NCBI GenBank assembly: GCA_038064975.1
Contig: JBBTRX010000002.1
Coordinates: 193,278-257,277, forward strand
Direction of reading: 5' to 3'
DNA length: 64,000 bases
Source: Patescibacteria group bacterium
Lineage (GTDB): Bacteria; Patescibacteriota; Minisyncoccia; UBA6257; 1-14-0-10-40-38
Positions 9,400-56,737 of this stretch are shown here, piece by piece. Both the position numbers and the translations under genes were made by a program. How positions within the stretch are numbered: the stretch's first letter is position 1; every line of letters begins with the position of its first letter. The notes below the pieces were generated by a model, which saw nothing but the letters and a program-made list of their open reading frames with translations, had not been told where the DNA came from and searched no databases.

Positions 9400-9441
9400 A
9401 AATAAAAAAAATCGTCCCCTATTGCGGGGGCGATTTTTTAA
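9400..9441. terminator. bidirectional rho-independent terminator (A-run, hairpin ATCGTCCCC/GGGGGCGAT, T-run)
   Basis: The hairpin is seen in sequence. It lies between convergent glgA (+) and yraN (-). Confidence 0.6.
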
Positions 9442-9848
9442 TTGACGTTTTCAAAATGCTGGAGGTTTTTATCTATAAAATCTTTTTTATATATTGTCAA
9501 TGCGTCTCCTTCTAGTTCGGTATCTGGGAGTTGTATGGTGATAACATCAATTCTCCAGCCCTTCGAACTATTGACAAGTTTAGAATTTTGGTTTGCATAA
9601 AATAAAGCCGATCTCTTCATCTTTTTTATTTTTTGCGGAGTCATATTATCTTCAGGGCTAAGCTCGCTTCCCTGTTTCATTGTTTTTACTTCAACGAAGA
9701 CGATTGTTCCATCCTTGGTTTTAGCGATGAGATCTATTTCTCCCAAAGGTACAAATTCATTGTGCATCAAAATTTTCCATCCCATGTTTTGGAGATACTT
9801 ACCTGCAATATCCTCTCCAATCTTACCCACTGTCTGATTTTCACTCAT
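9438..9848 (-). CDS. yraN: YraN/UPF0102 family endonuclease (PD-(D/E)xK fold)
   Basis: The sequence GEDIAGKYLQNMGWKIL...GEIDLIA...VFVEVK matches the UPF0102 pattern. Confidence 0.75.
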   Translation of the reverse strand: MSENQTVGKIGEDIAGKYLQNMGWKILMHNEFVPLGEIDLIAKTKDGTIVFVEVKTMKQGSELSPEDNMTPQKIKKMKRSALFYANQNSKLVNSSKGWRIDVITIQLPDTELEGDALTIYKKDFIDKNLQHFENVN

Positions 9849-9853
9849 GTAAT

Positions 9854-10409
9854 TGTTTCACGTGAAACATCTGTATAACAAATTAATTCAAACACATTTT
9901 CTATTAAAATTGAAAGTAAGTAATTCAATTGTTTCACGTGAAACAATTTGGTTAATTAGTGGATTGTTAGAATTGTTAAGATGTTTCACGTGAAACATTG
10001 TTCACACGGGAAAATCTTAAATATTGAAGTGATTATTAATATATTCCATGTCCAGGATCTAATAATCCCTATATTTAGTATTTTTTGTTGTTTTCTATTT
10101 TTTGCATTGTTTCACGTGAAACAATGCAAAACAATTCTGTATCGCAAATTTCCTTTTTATAGAAATTGAATACAATGTTTCACGTGAAACATTGATCAAA
10201 GAACGAACTCCAGTTTTTCAATTGTTTCACGTGAAACAATTGAGATTCTTTTTATTCTCGCAATATCATCAAATTGCTATGGAAAATGGATATTTCTATG
10301 AAATTAATGTTTCTCAATTATTTATGCATTGTTTCACGTGAAACAATGCATAAATAGAATATGCTCGCTTGATGTGCTGAATCTGTTACAAAATGTTTCA
10401 CGTGAAACA
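9854..10409. promoter_or_regulatory. array of 8 perfect parS centromere sites, TGTTTCACGTGAAACA, at 9854, 9930, 9982, 10108, 10176, 10223, 10330 and 10394 (each 16 bp)
   Basis: Exact matches to the canonical ParB-binding palindrome were counted by eye. Each core is extended into a longer 20-38 bp palindrome. Spacing is irregular (47-126 bp). The region is non-coding and AT-rich. Confidence 0.85.
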
Positions 10410-10470
10410 TTTTGTAACAGATTTATTGAACTAAAATGTTTTACAGGTGTTTTACACTTAGTAATATATA

Positions 10471-10553
10471 CGGCAATGCGGCAATCATATGAAGAATGCG
10501 GCAATGAATACGGCAATGTATATACGGCAATAGGATACGGCAATTGCCGTATC
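10471..10553. repeat. iteron-like array of six direct RYRCGGCAAT repeats ending in the perfect 22-bp palindrome GGATACGGCAATTGCCGTATCC
   Basis: CGGCAAT starts at 10471, 10479, 10499, 10511, 10525 and 10538. An inverted copy lies at 10543-10549. Confidence 0.8.
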
Positions 10554-10559
10554 CTATAA

Positions 10560-10595
10560 AAATAAAATTGCCAGGGTTTTGTCTGGCAATTTTAT
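10560..10595 (-). terminator. rho-independent terminator of the M15 peptidase gene (AAATTGCCAG/CTGGCAATTT hairpin followed by T-run on the minus strand)
   Basis: Seen in sequence, immediately 3' of the 10625 stop. Confidence 0.6.
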
Positions 10596-10624
10596 TACAA
10601 ACTGAAATATAAGATTAAGCAAGT

Positions 10625-11581
10625 CTAATCGAAAATTTTAACTAAGTATTCGTCAATCTGCCTCTGCTCAAGATTATAGAAATCCTTATTCTGATCGTGT
10701 AAATATGTCGCGAGAGCAACTCCGACGAATCTCCAATGCCAGGGTTCAAAAATATAGTATCCATTGTTTTGTGGATAGGAGAGAATAAAACCATACTTAA
10801 ATGCATTATTTTGCATCCACGTATAAGCCGGAGTTTTATCAAAGCCATAAAGCTGTCCATTCAAACCCGTAGTTATGAAATCAGCGGTTGTTCCAAGTTG
10901 ATGCTCTGAATAGCCTTGATCAGCAGAAAATTGATTCGCCGTTCCGGCACCATAAGTCACCGTATAGGACGATTTCAAAGCTTCTTGTTCGTCAAAGCCG
11001 CGATAGGCCGATTTGACATAGATAGTTACTCCATTTGATTTTGCCGCGACAAGGAGGTTATTAAGATAAGGGAAGACACGCTCATGTATTTGTTCTGGTC
11101 GGTTTTCGCTATAGAGAAATTCTTTGCCAATTTCAACCACCCGTTCGGGAGCGTAGTGTTCATTCAAAAAGAATACTTTTGAATACTTCTGCAAAAGCTC
11201 CGGGTCGGTTTTGCTAAGTTTTTCCAGCGTTCCAACCGTGTTGGATATTACTCCAACCGTCTGTTCAAAGCCGCCGACTCGCGTTTGGACTCCTTCAATA
11301 TTCTGATTTGCAATGGAGAGTGTTTTAGAAATACCAAGAGATTCTTGTTCTAGGGCACCCGTCTTCTCATTTAATGTATTAATCGCGGTTGCGAATAGGG
11401 CAGTAGTAGAAGCGACTTCAGAAGAAAGCTGATCTATTTGTTTTGCAAGGGAATATGTCTGTATGTAGCCATACGTAAATAAACCGATGAGCACGGCAAT
11501 ACCGATTATTAAAGAACGATTGACTGATGAAAATTTTCTTACTTTTTGCCAATTCATGTGCGTGCTGAGGGGAGATCTCAC
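10625..11581 (-). CDS. D-alanyl-D-alanine carboxypeptidase, peptidase M15 (VanY-like), N-terminal TM and coiled coil
   Basis: Motifs SEHQLGTTADF and EPWHWRF are present. Confidence 0.8.
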   Translation of the reverse strand: MRSPLSTHMNWQKVRKFSSVNRSLIIGIAVLIGLFTYGYIQTYSLAKQIDQLSSEVASTTALFATAINTLNEKTGALEQESLGISKTLSIANQNIEGVQTRVGGFEQTVGVISNTVGTLEKLSKTDPELLQKYSKVFFLNEHYAPERVVEIGKEFLYSENRPEQIHERVFPYLNNLLVAAKSNGVTIYVKSAYRGFDEQEALKSSYTVTYGAGTANQFSADQGYSEHQLGTTADFITTGLNGQLYGFDKTPAYTWMQNNAFKYGFILSYPQNNGYYIFEPWHWRFVGVALATYLHDQNKDFYNLEQRQIDEYLVKIFD

Positions 11582-11685
11582 GTCGTCCGATTTTGCCGGA
11601 CTCCTTGAAACCCCTCGGTTTCAATAACTTCCGTCTCGGGAAAACTCCCGATTTTCCCGACCCCTTTCCCTGTTCGGATTCTGCG

Positions 11686-11758
11686 GTGCGCGCTGAGGGG
11701 ATCGAACCCACGACCTACTCGGTGTAAACGAGTCGCTCTGCCACTGAGCTAAGCGCGC
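11686..11758 (-). tRNA. tRNA-Val (anticodon TAC)
   Basis: Manual cloverleaf: acceptor GCGCGCT/AGCGCGC, anticodon stem ACTCG/CGAGT, loop TTTACAC, T-loop TTCGATC. Confidence 0.75.
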
Positions 11759-12138: not shown

Positions 12139-12210
12139 CGGCCCATAGCTCAAGGGCAGAGCATCCGTCTTATACACGGGGGGTTGCAGGTTCGAATCCT
12201 GCTGGGCCGA
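12139..12210 (+). tRNA. tRNA-Ile with anticodon TAT (UAU), reading AUA
   Basis: Manual cloverleaf: acceptor CGGCCCA/TGGGCCG, D-arm GCTCAAGGGCAGAGC, anticodon stem TCCGT/ACGGG, loop CTTATAC, T-arm GCAGGTTCGAATCCTGC. Confidence 0.65.
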
Positions 12211-12217
12211 CAACAAA

Positions 12218-14095: not shown

Positions 14096-14234
14096 GATGT
14101 AGTGCGATATGTTAGTTATAACTCTTCATGAGTAAAATAATATCACACTGTGCGGGCAGAAGTAATATTCCTCATTTACTCATGAAGCTTCCATGACGTC
14201 GTTGCTGGCGTAAAACAACTGTAAAACAATTTTT

Positions 14235-14250
14235 TGTTTTACGTGAAACA
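14235..14250. promoter_or_regulatory. degenerate parS-like site TGTTTTACGTGAAACA (1 mismatch), adjacent to palindrome TTGTCCGGCAAAGCCGGATCCGGCTTTGCCGGACAA
   Basis: Seen in the ftsH/xer divergent intergenic region. The adjacent palindrome contains the CCGGCAA motif. Confidence 0.55.
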
Positions 14251-14366
14251 TTTTGTCCGGCAAAGCCGGATCCGGCTTTGCCGGACAACTAGCGACTAAT
14301 AATGAATTTAATTGGTCAACTTATCTTCCGTATACTAGTGTCGCAAAATAATCTACTATTATAACC

Positions 14367-17377: not shown

Positions 17378-17767
17378 TTAGAAAACTGTTTCTACAACTA
17401 ACTGAATCACTGCTCGAGAAAGGAATGCTACGATGACAGCAATAATTGCGTAAATAATATACGTTTTTGCCTTCCCAATATTATCTTCATTGCCTCCAGC
17501 CATGAGATACAAGTACGCTGCCCAGAGGACAAAAACACCAGCGAGAAAAATGAGAAACCCAAAAGCCCAACCGACAAGATTATCAAGTGTTCTCTTGATG
17601 AGACTTGAATCAGCACTTGGTTGTATCGGATTGATTCCACCTTGTGCTCCTACTACCATAGGGAATGCTACGAGGAAAATAACTAATGCAATTAAGAGCC
17701 CTTTTTTCATATGTAATATATTAATGCGTTCTGAATTATGACAATCGACCAAATGCTTATGCCCCAA
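17378..17767 (-). CDS. TrbC/VirB2-like pilin family small membrane protein (paralog 3)
   Basis: There is a signal peptide and two C-terminal hydrophobic helices (LWAAYLYLMAGG...AKTYIIYAIIAVIVAFL). It is paralogous to its two upstream neighbours. Confidence 0.5.
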   Translation of the reverse strand: MGHKHLVDCHNSERINILHMKKGLLIALVIFLVAFPMVVGAQGGINPIQPSADSSLIKRTLDNLVGWAFGFLIFLAGVFVLWAAYLYLMAGGNEDNIGKAKTYIIYAIIAVIVAFLSRAVIQLVVETVF

Positions 17768-18179
17768 TTATCTCTTTAATTAAAGCAATAAGCGCACGGG
17801 ATATCAAGAGAACAGCAACACCAATAACAGCATACGTAATTGTTCTTTTTCCATTTTCAAATTCAGTGGGATCTCCTTTTGCAAACAATATTTGATATCC
17901 GCCCCAGATAATCATAAGTGTTGCTATGGTGAGACCGAGTCCAACAGCAAATCCGATAAGGTCATTTAAAATTTGTTCAAGTGATTTTGATGGAATAATC
18001 TGACCACCTATTCCAGTTTGAGAAGGTGGTTGTTGCCCGACTCCTGATTGAGAAGGTGGTTGTTGTCCAAATCCCGATTGCGCTAACGCTGACTGAACAA
18101 GAATTAAATTTTTTAAAAATAGGTTCATAGAGATATAAATTATGGATTGGGTACAGAGTTGTTGGAAAGTAAACTCCAA
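17757..18179 (-). CDS. TrbC/VirB2-like pilin family small membrane protein (paralog 2) with Q/P-rich linker
   Basis: It shows the IIWGGYQILFAKGDP...ITYAVIGVAVLLI two-helix module. There is an internal repeat SG(F/V)GQQPPSQ. Confidence 0.5.
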   Translation of the reverse strand: MEFTFQQLCTQSIIYISMNLFLKNLILVQSALAQSGFGQQPPSQSGVGQQPPSQTGIGGQIIPSKSLEQILNDLIGFAVGLGLTIATLMIIWGGYQILFAKGDPTEFENGKRTITYAVIGVAVLLISRALIALIKEIIGA

Positions 18180-18538
18180 ACGAGTGAAACGATAATACCT
18201 GCTCCGAATACGATTGCGACGCCAATGAGTGCAGTTGTAATAATTTGCCTTCCCTTGGCGAACTCACTTGAATTCCCGCGTGCCATGATTATCTTAAACC
18301 CGCCCCAGATAATCATCAAGACAGCAAGGGGAAGGACGATGACTTTTCCGAGATAATCTATTACTACCTTAATAAGGTAAGCAAAGCTATTTAATCCACA
18401 ACCGCCATTGTCCGGTGGAAGATTAGGATCGCATTGAAGATCAACTCCTAAAATATTTAAAGTATCTGCACTCGCAATTCCTGGCATCAATATTATTGAG
18501 CAGCTAAGTAGAAAGAAAAAGAAAAATAGTATCTTCAT
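18140..18538 (-). CDS. TrbC/VirB2-like pilin family small membrane protein (paralog 1)
   Basis: The signal peptide is MKILFFFFFLLSCSIILMPGIASA. A Cys pair is followed by the MIIWGGFKIIMARG...ITTALIGVAIVFG module. Confidence 0.5.
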   Translation of the reverse strand: MKILFFFFFLLSCSIILMPGIASADTLNILGVDLQCDPNLPPDNGGCGLNSFAYLIKVVIDYLGKVIVLPLAVLMIIWGGFKIIMARGNSSEFAKGRQIITTALIGVAIVFGAGIIVSLVWSLLSNNSVPNP

Positions 18539-49312: not shown

Positions 49313-50503
49313 ATGAATCGTATTTATCTCGATTATGCGGCAACAACGCCACTAGACTCTGCAGCGAGGCGCGCCATGGATCCGTTCTACGGAAAAGTTT
49401 TTGGAAACCCAAGCTCGTTGCACTCATTTGGACAAGAAGCTTCCCGTGCTGTCTTTGTGTCGCGCAAATCTATCGTGGATTATGTAGGAGTTCGCTATGA
49501 CGAAGTTATTTTTACCGGATCAGCGACAGAGGCAAATAATATGGTCATGCAAGGAGCGGTGCGCGCATTCCGTCACAATCATGAAAATAATAAAGGACCC
49601 GTCCGCGCTATCATCTCCGCAATTGAACACGACTCTATATTGAAGGCGCTCCAGAATTTTCCTGAAGTTGAAATGGTAATAATTCCCGTTGATTCGGCAG
49701 GAATGATTGATGTGCAAGCTCTGGAGCAAGCGCTGAATGAAAATACGGCAATCGTTTCCGTGGGATACGTAAACGGAGAAGTAGGAACTATTCAAAATAT
49801 TGCGGCAATCGGCAAACGCATTGCCGCATTCCGCGGAGCAAAGCGTTTTCCTCTATTCCATACCGATGCCGTTCAGGCGTTACAGTATCTCAACATGGAA
49901 GTTAAAAATTTAGGAGTGGATGCTATGACACTTTCCGCTCATAAGGTATATGGCCCTAAGGGCATCGGCGCTTTAGTTCTGCGGCATCCGGATAGTAATT
50001 CCATTACCGCAAATATTATTAACCCCCTTATCTCGGGCGGAGATCAAGAATTCGGCATGCGCCCTGGCACAGAAAACGTCGCCGCGATTGTGGGATTTGC
50101 ATCTGCCGTAGATATTCTCCGGAAGATACAGTCAAAAGAAATAAAGCGGATGCAAAAGCTTGGGAAAGTATTTTTCACTTCACTCTCTAAGGCTTTGCCC
50201 GGAATTGAACTAAATGGTCCATTATTCGGCAATGATCGGATTTCGAACAACATTAATGTATATCTGAGGGATTTAGCGGGTCCATTGCAAAACTTTTTAG
50301 TGCGTCTGGATCGTGCGGGAGTTGCCGCTTCCAGCGGATCTGCCTGCGCTTCGCGAAAAGCTGAAGCTTCTCACGTCCTTCGTGCGTTATATAGAGATAA
50401 GGAGCGTAGAGAGAAAAGTGTACGATTTACCCTTGGCAAAATGACAACAGGAGAAGAAGTTCTGCGTGCGGTCAAAATTATAAAAAATATTCACACTACG
50501 TAA
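49313..50503 (+). CDS. cysteine desulfurase (NifS/IscS family aminotransferase class V)
   Basis: The PLP-lysine region SAHKVYGPKGIGAL is present. The N-terminus is LDYAATTP. Confidence 0.85.
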   Translation: MNRIYLDYAATTPLDSAARRAMDPFYGKVFGNPSSLHSFGQEASRAVFVSRKSIVDYVGVRYDEVIFTGSATEANNMVMQGAVRAFRHNHENNKGPVRAIISAIEHDSILKALQNFPEVEMVIIPVDSAGMIDVQALEQALNENTAIVSVGYVNGEVGTIQNIAAIGKRIAAFRGAKRFPLFHTDAVQALQYLNMEVKNLGVDAMTLSAHKVYGPKGIGALVLRHPDSNSITANIINPLISGGDQEFGMRPGTENVAAIVGFASAVDILRKIQSKEIKRMQKLGKVFFTSLSKALPGIELNGPLFGNDRISNNINVYLRDLAGPLQNFLVRLDRAGVAASSGSACASRKAEASHVLRALYRDKERREKSVRFTLGKMTTGEEVLRAVKIIKNIHTT

Positions 50504-55358: not shown

Positions 55359-55472
55359 CGTAAAATAAAATATCAAATATTAAATCTCAAAAACCATCTA
55401 ACCAATCAACTAATTCACCATTTAACTAATTAACTATTTTCCGCACGCAATCCGGCAACGGATTGACGGAAA

Positions 55473-56204
55473 ATGTTAATTGCCGTATATTCTTGCCGTA
55501 TGGATATCCAGCGGCAATCACAACTAGTAAGCTTTGCGGCACTTCGAATTGCCGCATATGTAAAAAGGAGAGAGCTGCGCGATCGCTTAAGCCGTCTCGC
55601 GTTTGATCTTATTGAGGCAGTTTCACAGAAAGATACTCATAAAATAAGCGAAGTTATCCTCTCTTTGCAGGGGCTTATATCGTTAGGTAAGGCATTGTAC
55701 GAAGTTGAGCCTACAAACGCCGATATTGTTATTGAGGAATCAGGTAAAATACTTGAGTTTGAGTTTGGAGAGGATACTCAAGATAAACCGGCAATCAAAG
55801 AAGTGGATATTTCTGGAATATTCAAAAAAGAGAGAACGCTCTTTTCTCATGAATTAGAGAAACCGAAAGAGATAAAGAAAAGCGGCAACGGCAATAAGGC
55901 AGAAGGTGTTAAAAAAATAATGCGGCAAGAGGATACGGCAAAAGAGAATAAGGCAATAGTCATAACTCCAGAGAAGCCACATATAAAGCAAAGCCAGGAG
56001 GAAAACCCGGCAATACGGCAATCGGCAATGCGAGATAAGATACGGCAAATAGGGGAGGCAGAGTTAAAGGATCTTATTGCCGCATTTCCCAATGTGAGCG
56101 AACGGACGATACGGTATGACGTGCAACGGTTATGTGCTGATGGATTAGTGGAGCGTATAGGTCCTGGAGGACCCGGAAGTTTCTATCGGGTAAGATCGGT
56201 GTAA
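55473..56204 (+). CDS. putative DNA-binding protein with C-terminal winged-helix motif (SERTIRYDVQRLCADGLVERIG); start uncertain
   Basis: ORF track. The C-terminal wHTH-like segment is the basis. Its 5' region and body are rich in ATTGCCGTAT/CGGCAAT motifs. Confidence 0.4.
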   Translation: MLIAVYSCRMDIQRQSQLVSFAALRIAAYVKRRELRDRLSRLAFDLIEAVSQKDTHKISEVILSLQGLISLGKALYEVEPTNADIVIEESGKILEFEFGEDTQDKPAIKEVDISGIFKKERTLFSHELEKPKEIKKSGNGNKAEGVKKIMRQEDTAKENKAIVITPEKPHIKQSQEENPAIRQSAMRDKIRQIGEAELKDLIAAFPNVSERTIRYDVQRLCADGLVERIGPGGPGSFYRVRSV

Positions 56205-56737
56205 TATACTCTTTTTTCTTCCGTTATACACGATATAGCTCAATAATCATTTAAGATATTCACAGTTGTGTATTTTTTATGAGGTATTGAGTAATATGGA
56301 TTTTGTTGATATAGTTAGTTTTGCTTAGGTGAGGCTAAGCATGCATCGAACGGAATAGCTTATAAACTGAATAACTGATAACTCTTTCTGAGTTACTGGT
56401 TGTAAGGTATGAGTTATAAGTTTGTGCGTATAGCCTCGCTTTAAAAGCGAGTTTTTTATTTATTTGATACTAGAGTCAAGCGTTTTGCTAGTGAGGTCGA
56501 TTCCCCTCCCCAGCTTTCATTTAAAAATGCCTAGCACAGGCACAAGAAGGTTGCGGTGGGGAAAATAGCATCAAAGCGCATGGCTTCCCGAAATGTAAGT
56601 TGTAGTGCATGAGATTCATTCAATAGAAATAATAAAAAAGGGAAGGCAGTCGTGGTCGGTAGGTGCCCTCCCGGTGATCAATTCCAAATGGTCACTACTA
56701 GTAACAAGTTAAAATAATATAAAAGTCACAATTAATT

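Follow-up and report, generated by a model that had tools for sequence, protein, structure and literature searches.

The 64,000-nt stretch of DNA analyzed here (the window, whose numbering is used for all positions) carries a dense array of CGGCAAT repeats at 10468-10557, next to a cluster of parS sites and the gene yraN, and a second concentration of the same motif around a gene for a winged-helix protein at 55500-56204. The gene content (recG, two glgA, GH57, yraN, ftsH, xer, gyrA, pnp, nusA, recA, ftsK, clpB and htrA) constitutes a housekeeping context, and the window belongs to a chromosome of the Patescibacteria (Candidate Phyla Radiation, CPR), not to a plasmid. The assignment to this group follows from the product of 55500-56204, which has 100% identity with an NCBI protein of a 'Patescibacteria group bacterium'. 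The array and its nearest neighbors are composed as follows.

10468-10544, + strand: six direct boxes AT[A/G]CGGCAAT, starting at 10468, 10476, 10496, 10508, 10522 and 10535 (pattern search, cluster statistics)
10543-10552, - strand: seventh box, inverted and overlapping the sixth (pattern search)
10530-10557, unstranded: perfect 28-bp palindrome ATAGGATACGGCAATTGCCGTATCCTAT, two head-to-head boxes formed by the last two array copies
9854-10409, unstranded: eight perfect parS sites (TGTTTCACGTGAAACA; sequence search)
9438-9848, - strand: yraN (UPF0102), with the array on its 5' side and the parS cluster between them

The CGGCAAT array at 10468-10557

The heptamer CGGCAAT is found on the + strand at 10471, 10479, 10499, 10511, 10525 and 10538 and on the - strand at 10543-10549 (sequence and pattern search), and the six direct repeats with an inverted copy described in the initial annotation are thus present, at 10468-10552. 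With their flanks, the direct boxes read ATACGGCAAT at 10468, 10508, 10522 and 10535 and ATGCGGCAAT at 10476 and 10496, with start-to-start spacings of 8, 20, 12, 14 and 13 bp. The terminal 22-bp palindrome of that annotation, GGATACGGCAATTGCCGTATCC, is also there, but its length had been underestimated, as the perfect palindrome extends over 28 bp. Either strand of this palindrome can form a 12-bp hairpin, and it is probably the site that a dimer would bind with the highest affinity. The array is one-armed, all six direct boxes lying on the parS side, and it starts 58 bp past the last parS, so that its earlier description as abutting the parS cluster is fair. The array units themselves do not match the 16-bp parS palindrome TGTTNCACGTGAAACA, whereas the neighboring cluster at 9854-10409 does, in eight perfect copies.

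In the window, CGGCAAT occurs 40 times, against 11.5 ± 3.5 times in dinucleotide shuffles (shuffle maximum 21), which is not a random-expectation level for this 64 kb. Seven copies fall inside 100 bp, where 100 first-order Markov simulations reached a maximum of 2, and a chance origin of the cluster is excluded. Dense clusters of the heptamer are limited to two in the 64 kb, the array and the interval 55479-56082.

The region 10462-10602 gives two strong hairpins on both strands (folding z = -7.7), and a weak promoter-like site, TTTACA-16-TAATAT, lies at 10440-10467. Nevertheless, an intrinsic terminator at the 28-bp palindrome was rejected because no T-run stands beside it on either strand and none was called there; the hairpin that qualifies, by eye, is the neighboring one at 10561-10597. 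Only tRNAs reached the gathering score in the Rfam search, the matches below threshold being hairpin noise, and a scan of viral contigs for the array returned a single match, which is coding and irrelevant.

Boxes in the promoter and coding sequence of a winged-helix gene

The second cluster coincides with a gene whose product the initial annotation had referred to as the 55473 protein, and which begins at the ATG 55500.

55500-56204, + strand: gene for a 234-aa protein (true start, ATG 55500)
55463-55491, + strand: promoter-like site of this gene, TTGACG, 17 nt, TATATT
55479-55501, - strand: two boxes, ATACGGCAAT at 55479-55488 and ATACGGCAAG at 55492-55501, putative auto-operator

The recurrence of the motif upstream of and within this gene had been noted before, and it is borne out by 12 CGGCAA copies in gene and promoter together and three further upstream; the copies of the gene occupy all three frames and lie mostly on the sense strand. 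CGGCAA(T) is also the top 6/7-mer in the homologues of three other loci (L001, L002 and L004, with 33-36% protein identity; loci from other genomes bear L numbers throughout), again in three frames and mostly in sense. Eight genes picked by protein similarity alone were each compared with 2000 synonymous recodings that used local codon usage. CGGCAA was observed 6-13 times per gene, against recoding means of 0.4-2.8, and the observed count was above all 2000 recodings in each of the eight. By this comparison, the clustering of boxes in the winged-helix gene is conserved and acts at the DNA level. Some of the boxes overlap the conserved peptides AIRQSAI and RIRQSGNCR, which can be written as ATC-CGG-CAA-TCC-GGC-AAT-TGC-CGA, and the remaining ones fall in the variable linker.

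The boxes at 55479-55501 lie across the -10 element and extend over both the expected transcription start and the ATG. Among 51 homologue genes, at least one box lies within -80 to +15 of the start codon in 41 and at least two in 33, in promoter regions that were outside the pattern by which the loci had been retrieved. Box density before homologue starts reaches 1.69 sites per 95 bp, against 0.40 before other open reading frames (ORFs). The typical homologue promoter reads cTTGCAA-TTGCCGGATTGCCGGAT-TATAAT, followed after 8-10 nt by ATG; the 17-nt spacer between the elements of this near-consensus promoter is therefore taken up by two boxes in tandem. Since the boxes in this spacer lie upstream of the transcript, they argue for recognition of DNA and not of RNA. 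Copies of the putative operator are thus positioned over the core promoter of the candidate regulator itself, as in an autorepressor/operator pair, and the layout, as far as sequence tells, is that of a classic autorepressor operator, as expected for autorepression. The mRNA of the gene also appears to have no leader, or almost none, as the ATG follows the -10 element by 8-10 nt (55463-55502 in the window, and 51 homologue loci).

The 234-aa protein consists of an Avd-like four-helix bundle, a disordered linker and a C-terminal winged helix of the DeoR type. Its AlphaFold2 model is confident for the bundle (residues 3-89) and the winged helix (170-231), with disorder between them. The HTH_DeoR profile matches residues 173-220, and it matches 30 of 31 family members. 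DeoR-type regulators often use several half-sites, direct or inverted, and oligomerize. Nevertheless, membership of the classical DeoR family, with HTH_DeoR at the N-terminus and DeoRC at the C-terminus, was rejected: here the helix-turn-helix (HTH) is C-terminal, DeoRC is absent, and the N-terminal bundle and disordered linker stand in its place. Searches of NCBIfam and of PDB sequences with the protein gave no matches. Foldseek placed the C-terminus among DNA-binding winged helices, with the small winged-helix centromere binder AspA of pNOB8 (PDB 5k5q, 4rs8) among the best matches, although this match is weak (E ~0.02, 15% identity) and no better than those to MarR, PadR and ROK regulators. 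AspA nucleates on a palindrome and extends along DNA at the centromere; it differs from the present protein in being archaeal, plasmid-borne and part of a three-protein partition machine.

The recognition helix is invariant (S200, R202, R205, Y206 and D207) while the protein diverges to ~30% identity, and the core of the box does not vary either. The family comprises 454 clusters at 90% identity (E <=1e-8) and 531 clusters at 50% identity (E <=1e-30), and every named member comes from Patescibacteria. The gene order is conserved as well: clpB comes first, then a gene for a ~240-aa protein, in some cases one for a nucleotidyltransferase, then the winged-helix gene and finally one for a protein of 1100-1260 aa, in which a peptidoglycan-binding domain was matched at several loci. 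A gap of ~320-830 bp always separates the last two genes (56205-56737 in the window; also L001, L002, L004 and L247-L250), and that of L247 also contains a small GIY-YIG gene. This gap may hold an undescribed leader or RNA; the Rfam search returned nothing in it.

Arrays beside yraN and parS in other Patescibacteria

Metagenome contigs were scanned for direct boxes converging on CGGCAATTGCCG, with the pattern CGGCAATTGCCG-N(1-30)-ATTGCCG-N(1-30)-ATTGCCG, and at least 119 loci were recovered. Among the matches listed, 49 lie inside winged-helix homologues, where the direct boxes, in sense orientation, run into the palindrome just before the part coding for the winged helix, in the same way as at 10468-10557. 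The other 70 listed lie outside such homologues, and about half of them are coincidences in GC-rich coding sequence. The low-GC set (GC <0.5) comprises 35 of these non-gene loci, again among the matches listed, and 16 of the 35 have a yraN homologue beside the array. Several of the 16 share further genes with the window (glgA, ftsH, xer, or tRNA-Val(tac)/tRNA-Ile(tat)), and the order array, parS-type sites, yraN start is found in 15 of them and in the window. Sites of the form TGTTT-N6-AAACA occur within ~0.8 kb of 11 of the 35 low-GC loci listed, with at least two sites in nine, against a background of one site in 131 kb of other Patescibacteria DNA. In the genome collection, a Candidatus Portnoybacteria locus (L118) shows the same palindrome-plus-repeats array; it was the only relevant match among those listed in a scan of genome contigs with three CGGCAAT copies, which otherwise yielded microsatellites and coding repeats of GC-rich taxa. 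The proteins flanking the conserved arrays are only 35-55% identical across lineages. The conservation of the array, which the initial annotation had proposed to check, is therefore found in the recurrence of the same architecture beside yraN and parS, and, on this comparative evidence, the link between array and parS is conserved across many Patescibacteria.

Intergenic arrays (133 units) and genes (90 units), each pooled, give one and the same box consensus, AAT-N-CGGCAA-T. The commonest spacings are 8 bp (tandem boxes that share AAT) and 6 bp (the palindrome), with a tail to 20-30 bp, and arrays hold 4-16 boxes within 100-250 bp. Those of relatives are usually two-armed, with direct boxes converging on the palindrome, and the intergenic palindromes commonly reach at least 20 bp (e.g., AATCCGGCAATTGCCGGATT). 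Position N of the box is A or G in both window clusters and C or T in most other genomes. It varies, however, within single arrays, and covariation of this position was therefore not counted as evidence.

Further elements of the window locus, and of a second, smaller one, are listed below.

10437-10456, + strand: two direct half-parS-like repeats, TGTTTTACA twice, 11 bp apart, separating the parS cluster from the array
10561-10597, - strand: hairpin and T-run, terminator of the VanY-like gene (by eye), whose stem has the near-boxes ATTGCCAG/CTGGCAAT
10625-11581: VanY-like carboxypeptidase gene, which has a terminator of its own and separates tRNA-Val from the array
11685-11758, - strand: tRNA-Val(tac), transcribed towards the array (tRNA search)
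14211-14286, unstranded: compact second composite in the divergent ftsH/xer promoter region, consisting of the following three parts
14211-14229: two direct half-parS repeats
14235-14250: parS with one mismatch
14255-14286: perfect 32-bp palindrome GTCCGGCAAAGCCGGATCCGGCTTTGCCGGAC, with an inverted CGGCAA/TTGCCG pair

The palindrome that the initial annotation had seen beside the degenerate parS at 14235 is thus the 32-bp perfect palindrome of this composite, and both parS loci of the window have an adjoining CGGCAA palindrome. In L140, the second parS likewise has an adjoining CGGCAA-N9-TTGCCG hairpin.

Complete tRNA genes on the array side are transcribed towards the array in all seven cases, the window included, with the array between tRNA and parS. 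In L222, the array begins 12 bp after tRNA-Val, and a U-rich tract follows the palindrome. The insertion of a VanY-like gene between tRNA-Val and array is seen in this genome only, as tRNA-Val directly adjoins the array in relatives, and the VanY-like homologues (~60% identity) have unrelated neighborhoods with neither parS nor array. From these comparisons, the VanY-like gene is an insertion and yraN is the conserved anchor of the locus. A tRNA-Ile gene with anticodon UAU (12139-12211) adjoins tRNA-Val(UAC), an association conserved also in L140, L145, L153 and L222.

The parS sites have features of their own. Seven of the eight perfect sites (9854-10423) lie inside longer perfect palindromes of 18-44 bp, the one at 10380-10423 being 44 bp long, and the flanks of these palindromes differ from copy to copy. 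Over 37 symmetric parS-type sites from the window and related loci, the symmetry extends by a mean of 3.5 bp per side, against ~0.3 expected, and up to a total palindrome length of 50 bp. That the flanks are symmetrical while their sequence is not conserved suggests a symmetrizing repair process or selection for the ability to form hairpins or cruciforms. Pairs of half-parS (TGTTTTACA or GTGTGAAACA) stand between array and full parS in L133, L138, L140, L158, L193, L204, L217, L222 and L228, usually as direct repeats 11 bp apart and in some cases inverted. In related loci (L158, L217, L133, L145, L140, L195, L210 and L134), parS-like 16-mers keep the TGTTT...AAACA arms and vary in the central six bases (CACGTG, GCCGGC, AGCGCT, ACCGGC, and half-and-half hybrids such as TGTTTCACGGCAAACA), these variants being mixed within one cluster, which points to a relaxed or diversified core specificity of ParB in the phylum. 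The window has the canonical parS core only, and TGTTTGCCGGCAAACA is absent from it even at three mismatches.

Perfect DnaA boxes (TGTGGATAA/TTATCCACA) were observed within 70 bp of the arrays of L158 (~680), L217 (~1140) and L236 (~3870), and near-perfect ones by those of L133 and L142/L221; the window has nothing comparable. Neither dnaA nor dnaN was found near the DnaA-box-bearing arrays of L221 and L236. In addition, L172/L190, which belong to one contig (Ga0172379_10003506), have two CGGCAATTGCCG palindromes with boxes in an apparent repeat-rich coiled-coil coding region (...NSAIAEL...), which makes a third setting in which boxes occur.

Function of the array and competing explanations

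We think it fairly probable that the array serves a Patescibacteria-specific winged-helix protein, autoregulated and in this genome the product of 55500-56204, as a docking platform with multiple sites. The recognition unit would be ~11 bp long, AAT-N-CGGCAA-T, and the comparison of genomes shows one box type marking three targets: the promoter spacer of the winged-helix gene, its coding sequence, and the outer flank of the parS cluster. Indeed, an operator for a second DNA-binding protein, with the product of the same gene as candidate, was among the proposals of the initial annotation, and it is this one that the comparative box evidence supports. As a repeat array of the operator type for an autoregulated winged-helix protein, the element is of a kind already known; its new aspects are the partnership with a chromosomal centromere, the presence of boxes in the coding sequence of the regulator across the phylum, and the bundle-linker-winged-helix architecture.

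In the mechanism that we propose, the winged-helix protein would bind the boxes and repress its own gene. The bundle may oligomerize, as Avd and S23/IVP proteins of similar fold do, and the flexible linker of ~80 residues would let several winged helices reach separate boxes, making the binding multivalent; such flexible tethers would explain the irregular box spacing of 8-20 bp. Binding would start at the 28-bp palindrome and spread over the six direct boxes, one oligomer covering an array of five to seven boxes. At the centromere, and this is the weakest step, the complex could shield the parS cluster on the side of the tRNA, as a barrier that blocks RNA polymerase read-through from tRNA-Val/VanY into ParB-parS, limits ParB sliding, or both. 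The orientation of the tRNA genes towards the array fits such a role, to which a titration role of the arrays would be an alternative. On the F plasmid, RepE-bound iterons limit the spreading of SopB, and a bound array beside a parS-type site sets the edge of the partition complex. This RepE roadblock may serve as an analogy, and only as that, for the putative barrier.

Several points weigh against this interpretation. The seven tRNA cases are not independent, as the orientation is part of an inherited gene order, and the barrier role is deduced from position. The orientation of the array relative to parS also differs between loci, and the window alone allowed the two types of array to be assigned to the same genome. 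It was the search pattern that selected the 49 gene-internal loci, and the unbiased sample consists of the eight enrichment-tested genes and the promoter regions. Part of the gene-internal signal coincides with AIRQSAI and RIRQSGNCR, so that protein- and DNA-level constraints are entangled. Oligomerization of the bundle is suggested by fold similarity at 6-13% identity, and a different factor could recognize the boxes and merely regulate the winged-helix gene. Finally, arrays located elsewhere (L142/L221, L236 and L172/L190) indicate that the regulon may exceed the centromere. A more ambitious version, which we put forward tentatively and regard as doubtful, is that of a new centromere-flanking system of Patescibacteria, in which a multivalent autoregulated binder uses its own coding sequence as a platform, with boxes written into all three frames of the linker and first helix, and in which the array at the parS edge insulates or organizes the ParB complex.

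The binder of the boxes could instead be a different factor with ties to ParB/parS (a ParB paralogue, for example, or an unknown centromere protein), the winged-helix gene being only its regulated target. The tight linkage of boxes and parS clusters speaks for this, as do the parS-like 16-mers of relatives, in which TGTTTGCCGGCAAACA and hybrids like TGTTTCACGGCAAACA put a CGGCAA core in the parS frame, and the case for the winged-helix protein as the binder is, for its part, one of sequence comparison. Nevertheless, autoregulation is the simplest explanation for a DNA-binding protein whose gene has an operator within its core promoter, the array unit has no outer bases in common with the parS half-site, and the window has an array yet only canonical parS (no TGTTTGCCGGCAAACA at up to three mismatches). 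Moreover, no second HTH candidate is conserved beside the arrays, YraN being nuclease-like. We therefore consider this explanation unlikely. Second sequence-specific systems that are co-located with a segregation domain, or defined relative to it, do exist, as in RacA-ram and Noc-NBS of Bacillus subtilis and in MatP-matS. Those systems use single palindromes dispersed across tens to hundreds of kb, in contrast to the tight arrays found here, and we know of none among RacA, Noc and MatP with a gene saturated by its own site.

An action through nucleic-acid structure is very unlikely in our view. The element would then be an RNA hairpin, a small RNA or a DNA cruciform; it could, for instance, serve tRNA-Val/VanY as a downstream terminator or insulator, or sequester a protein through the repeated CGGCAAU of a ~110-nt small RNA. 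The strong hairpins of 10462-10602 on both strands, the promoter-like site at 10440-10467 with the terminator hairpin at 10561-10597, the L222 array with its tRNA-Val and U-rich tract, and the copy-specific extended palindromes around the parS sites of the region are all in line with this. However, the palindrome is without a T-run or a terminator call, the Rfam search gave no match, the same boxes occupy promoter spacers that are not transcribed, and the variable orientation and frequent two arms of the arrays do not fit a transcript of a single sense. Separately, a guide array of the TIGR/CRISPR type was rejected, given the short and irregular spacing of 8-20 bp and the absence of tas/cas genes in the window scans. 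TIGR arrays have a period of 36 nt and occur in CPR, sometimes alongside ParB-like genes (PMC12045711).

The initial annotation had also raised iterons and type Ib/II partition sites, and neither reading held up. Pfam scans covered the window ORFs of at least 100 aa, and in this set there was no Rep-type initiator, no match to the ParA/CbiA, ParM/actin-like or ParB families, and no DnaA gene, ribbon-helix-helix operon or dedicated partition motor. Within 200 bp of the array, no DnaA box turned up even with one mismatch allowed, and the window has no DnaA-box cluster. Between 1 and 22 kb, the GC skew of the 2-kb bins is 0 or positive throughout, with no sign switch near 10 kb. From these negative results and the chromosomal context, the array is in all likelihood neither an iteron origin nor a plasmid partition site. 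Accordingly, we give very little credence to iterons of a replication origin or of an origin-control site, even though direct repeats with an inverted pair resemble an iteron origin with its auto-operator and perfect DnaA boxes (TGTGGATAA) accompany the arrays of L158, L217 and L236. Indeed, the likeness to iteron plasmids (RepA of pPS10, RepE of F and RepA of P1) goes further, since there too direct repeats adjoin an inverted repeat of the same unit, copies lie in the auto-repressed promoter of the binder, and the binder is a winged-helix protein, here a candidate. In contrast, their units are 17-22 bp long, whereas those of the array are 10-11 bp with irregular spacing of 8-20 bp. Rep, DnaA boxes, an unwinding element and a skew switch are missing here, no dnaA/dnaN stands beside the DnaA-box loci examined, and the present arrays are chromosomal, conserved across the phylum, and also fill the coding sequence of the binder.

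Two further readings, of the array as a type Ib/II centromere of the plasmid style (with an adaptor and a motor of its own) and as a dif/Xer site for recombination, seem equally hard to credit. The geometry of short direct and inverted repeats is compatible with type Ib/II partition sites, the 28-bp palindrome splits 11-6-11 into ATAGGATACGG-CAATTG-CCGTATCCTAT, and xer lies 4 kb away in the window and ~0.15-5 kb from the array in L187, L224 and L118. However, the window scans revealed no ParA, ParM or adaptor operon of the ribbon-helix-helix type, and the candidate binder is a winged helix. The closest parallel would be the Omega repressor of pSM19035 (type Ib partition), a plasmid ribbon-helix-helix dimer that works with the ParA ATPase Delta. 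Its arrays of 7-8-bp units, direct and inverted and often contiguous, are bound cooperatively and serve both as promoter operators and as sites in the centromere region. Here, by contrast, the candidate joins a winged helix to an Avd-like bundle, the true centromere is the neighboring ParB-type parS, and no dedicated motor is evident. For a dif site the length would fit, but each genome or metagenome locus has several of these palindromes, and a dif site has to be unique; a skew switch is also lacking, and the palindrome has no resemblance to what we take to be the bacterial dif consensus. Least credible of all is a non-functional tract produced by replication slippage of an 8-bp unit. While 8 bp is the commonest spacing and some arrays differ by one such unit, position and core are kept across lineages whose flanking proteins are 35-55% identical, the boxes are precisely placed in promoter spacers, and their enrichment exceeds that of synonymous recodings.

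Patescibacteria account for a large share of bacterial diversity and are almost all uncultured, and to our knowledge essentially no transcription factors or chromosome-organization factors have been characterized in them. Our literature search found nothing on the CGGCAAT box motif, the winged-helix family, or parS organization in this phylum. The pairing of a Patescibacteria protein family with a ~11-bp box and three defined target types is precise and testable. If it is true, it would show with unusual clarity how a coding sequence is shaped by carrying the binding sites of its own product, and it would indicate an accessory component of ParABS centromeres. In addition, the conserved centromere locus (yraN, parS cluster, array and tRNA-Val/Ile) could help to orient and annotate CPR genomes.

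Two minor observations concern other parts of the window. An inverted pair of boxes, GCGGCAAT-N10-ATTGCCGC, lies at 49803-49829 in a class-V aminotransferase gene, with a third box at 49746; these may be a genuine extra site or a by-product of Ala-Ala-Ile/Ile-Ala-Ala codons. At 17378-18538, three tandem small genes match T4SS_pilin/TrbC, beside a solute-binding protein gene and gyrA.

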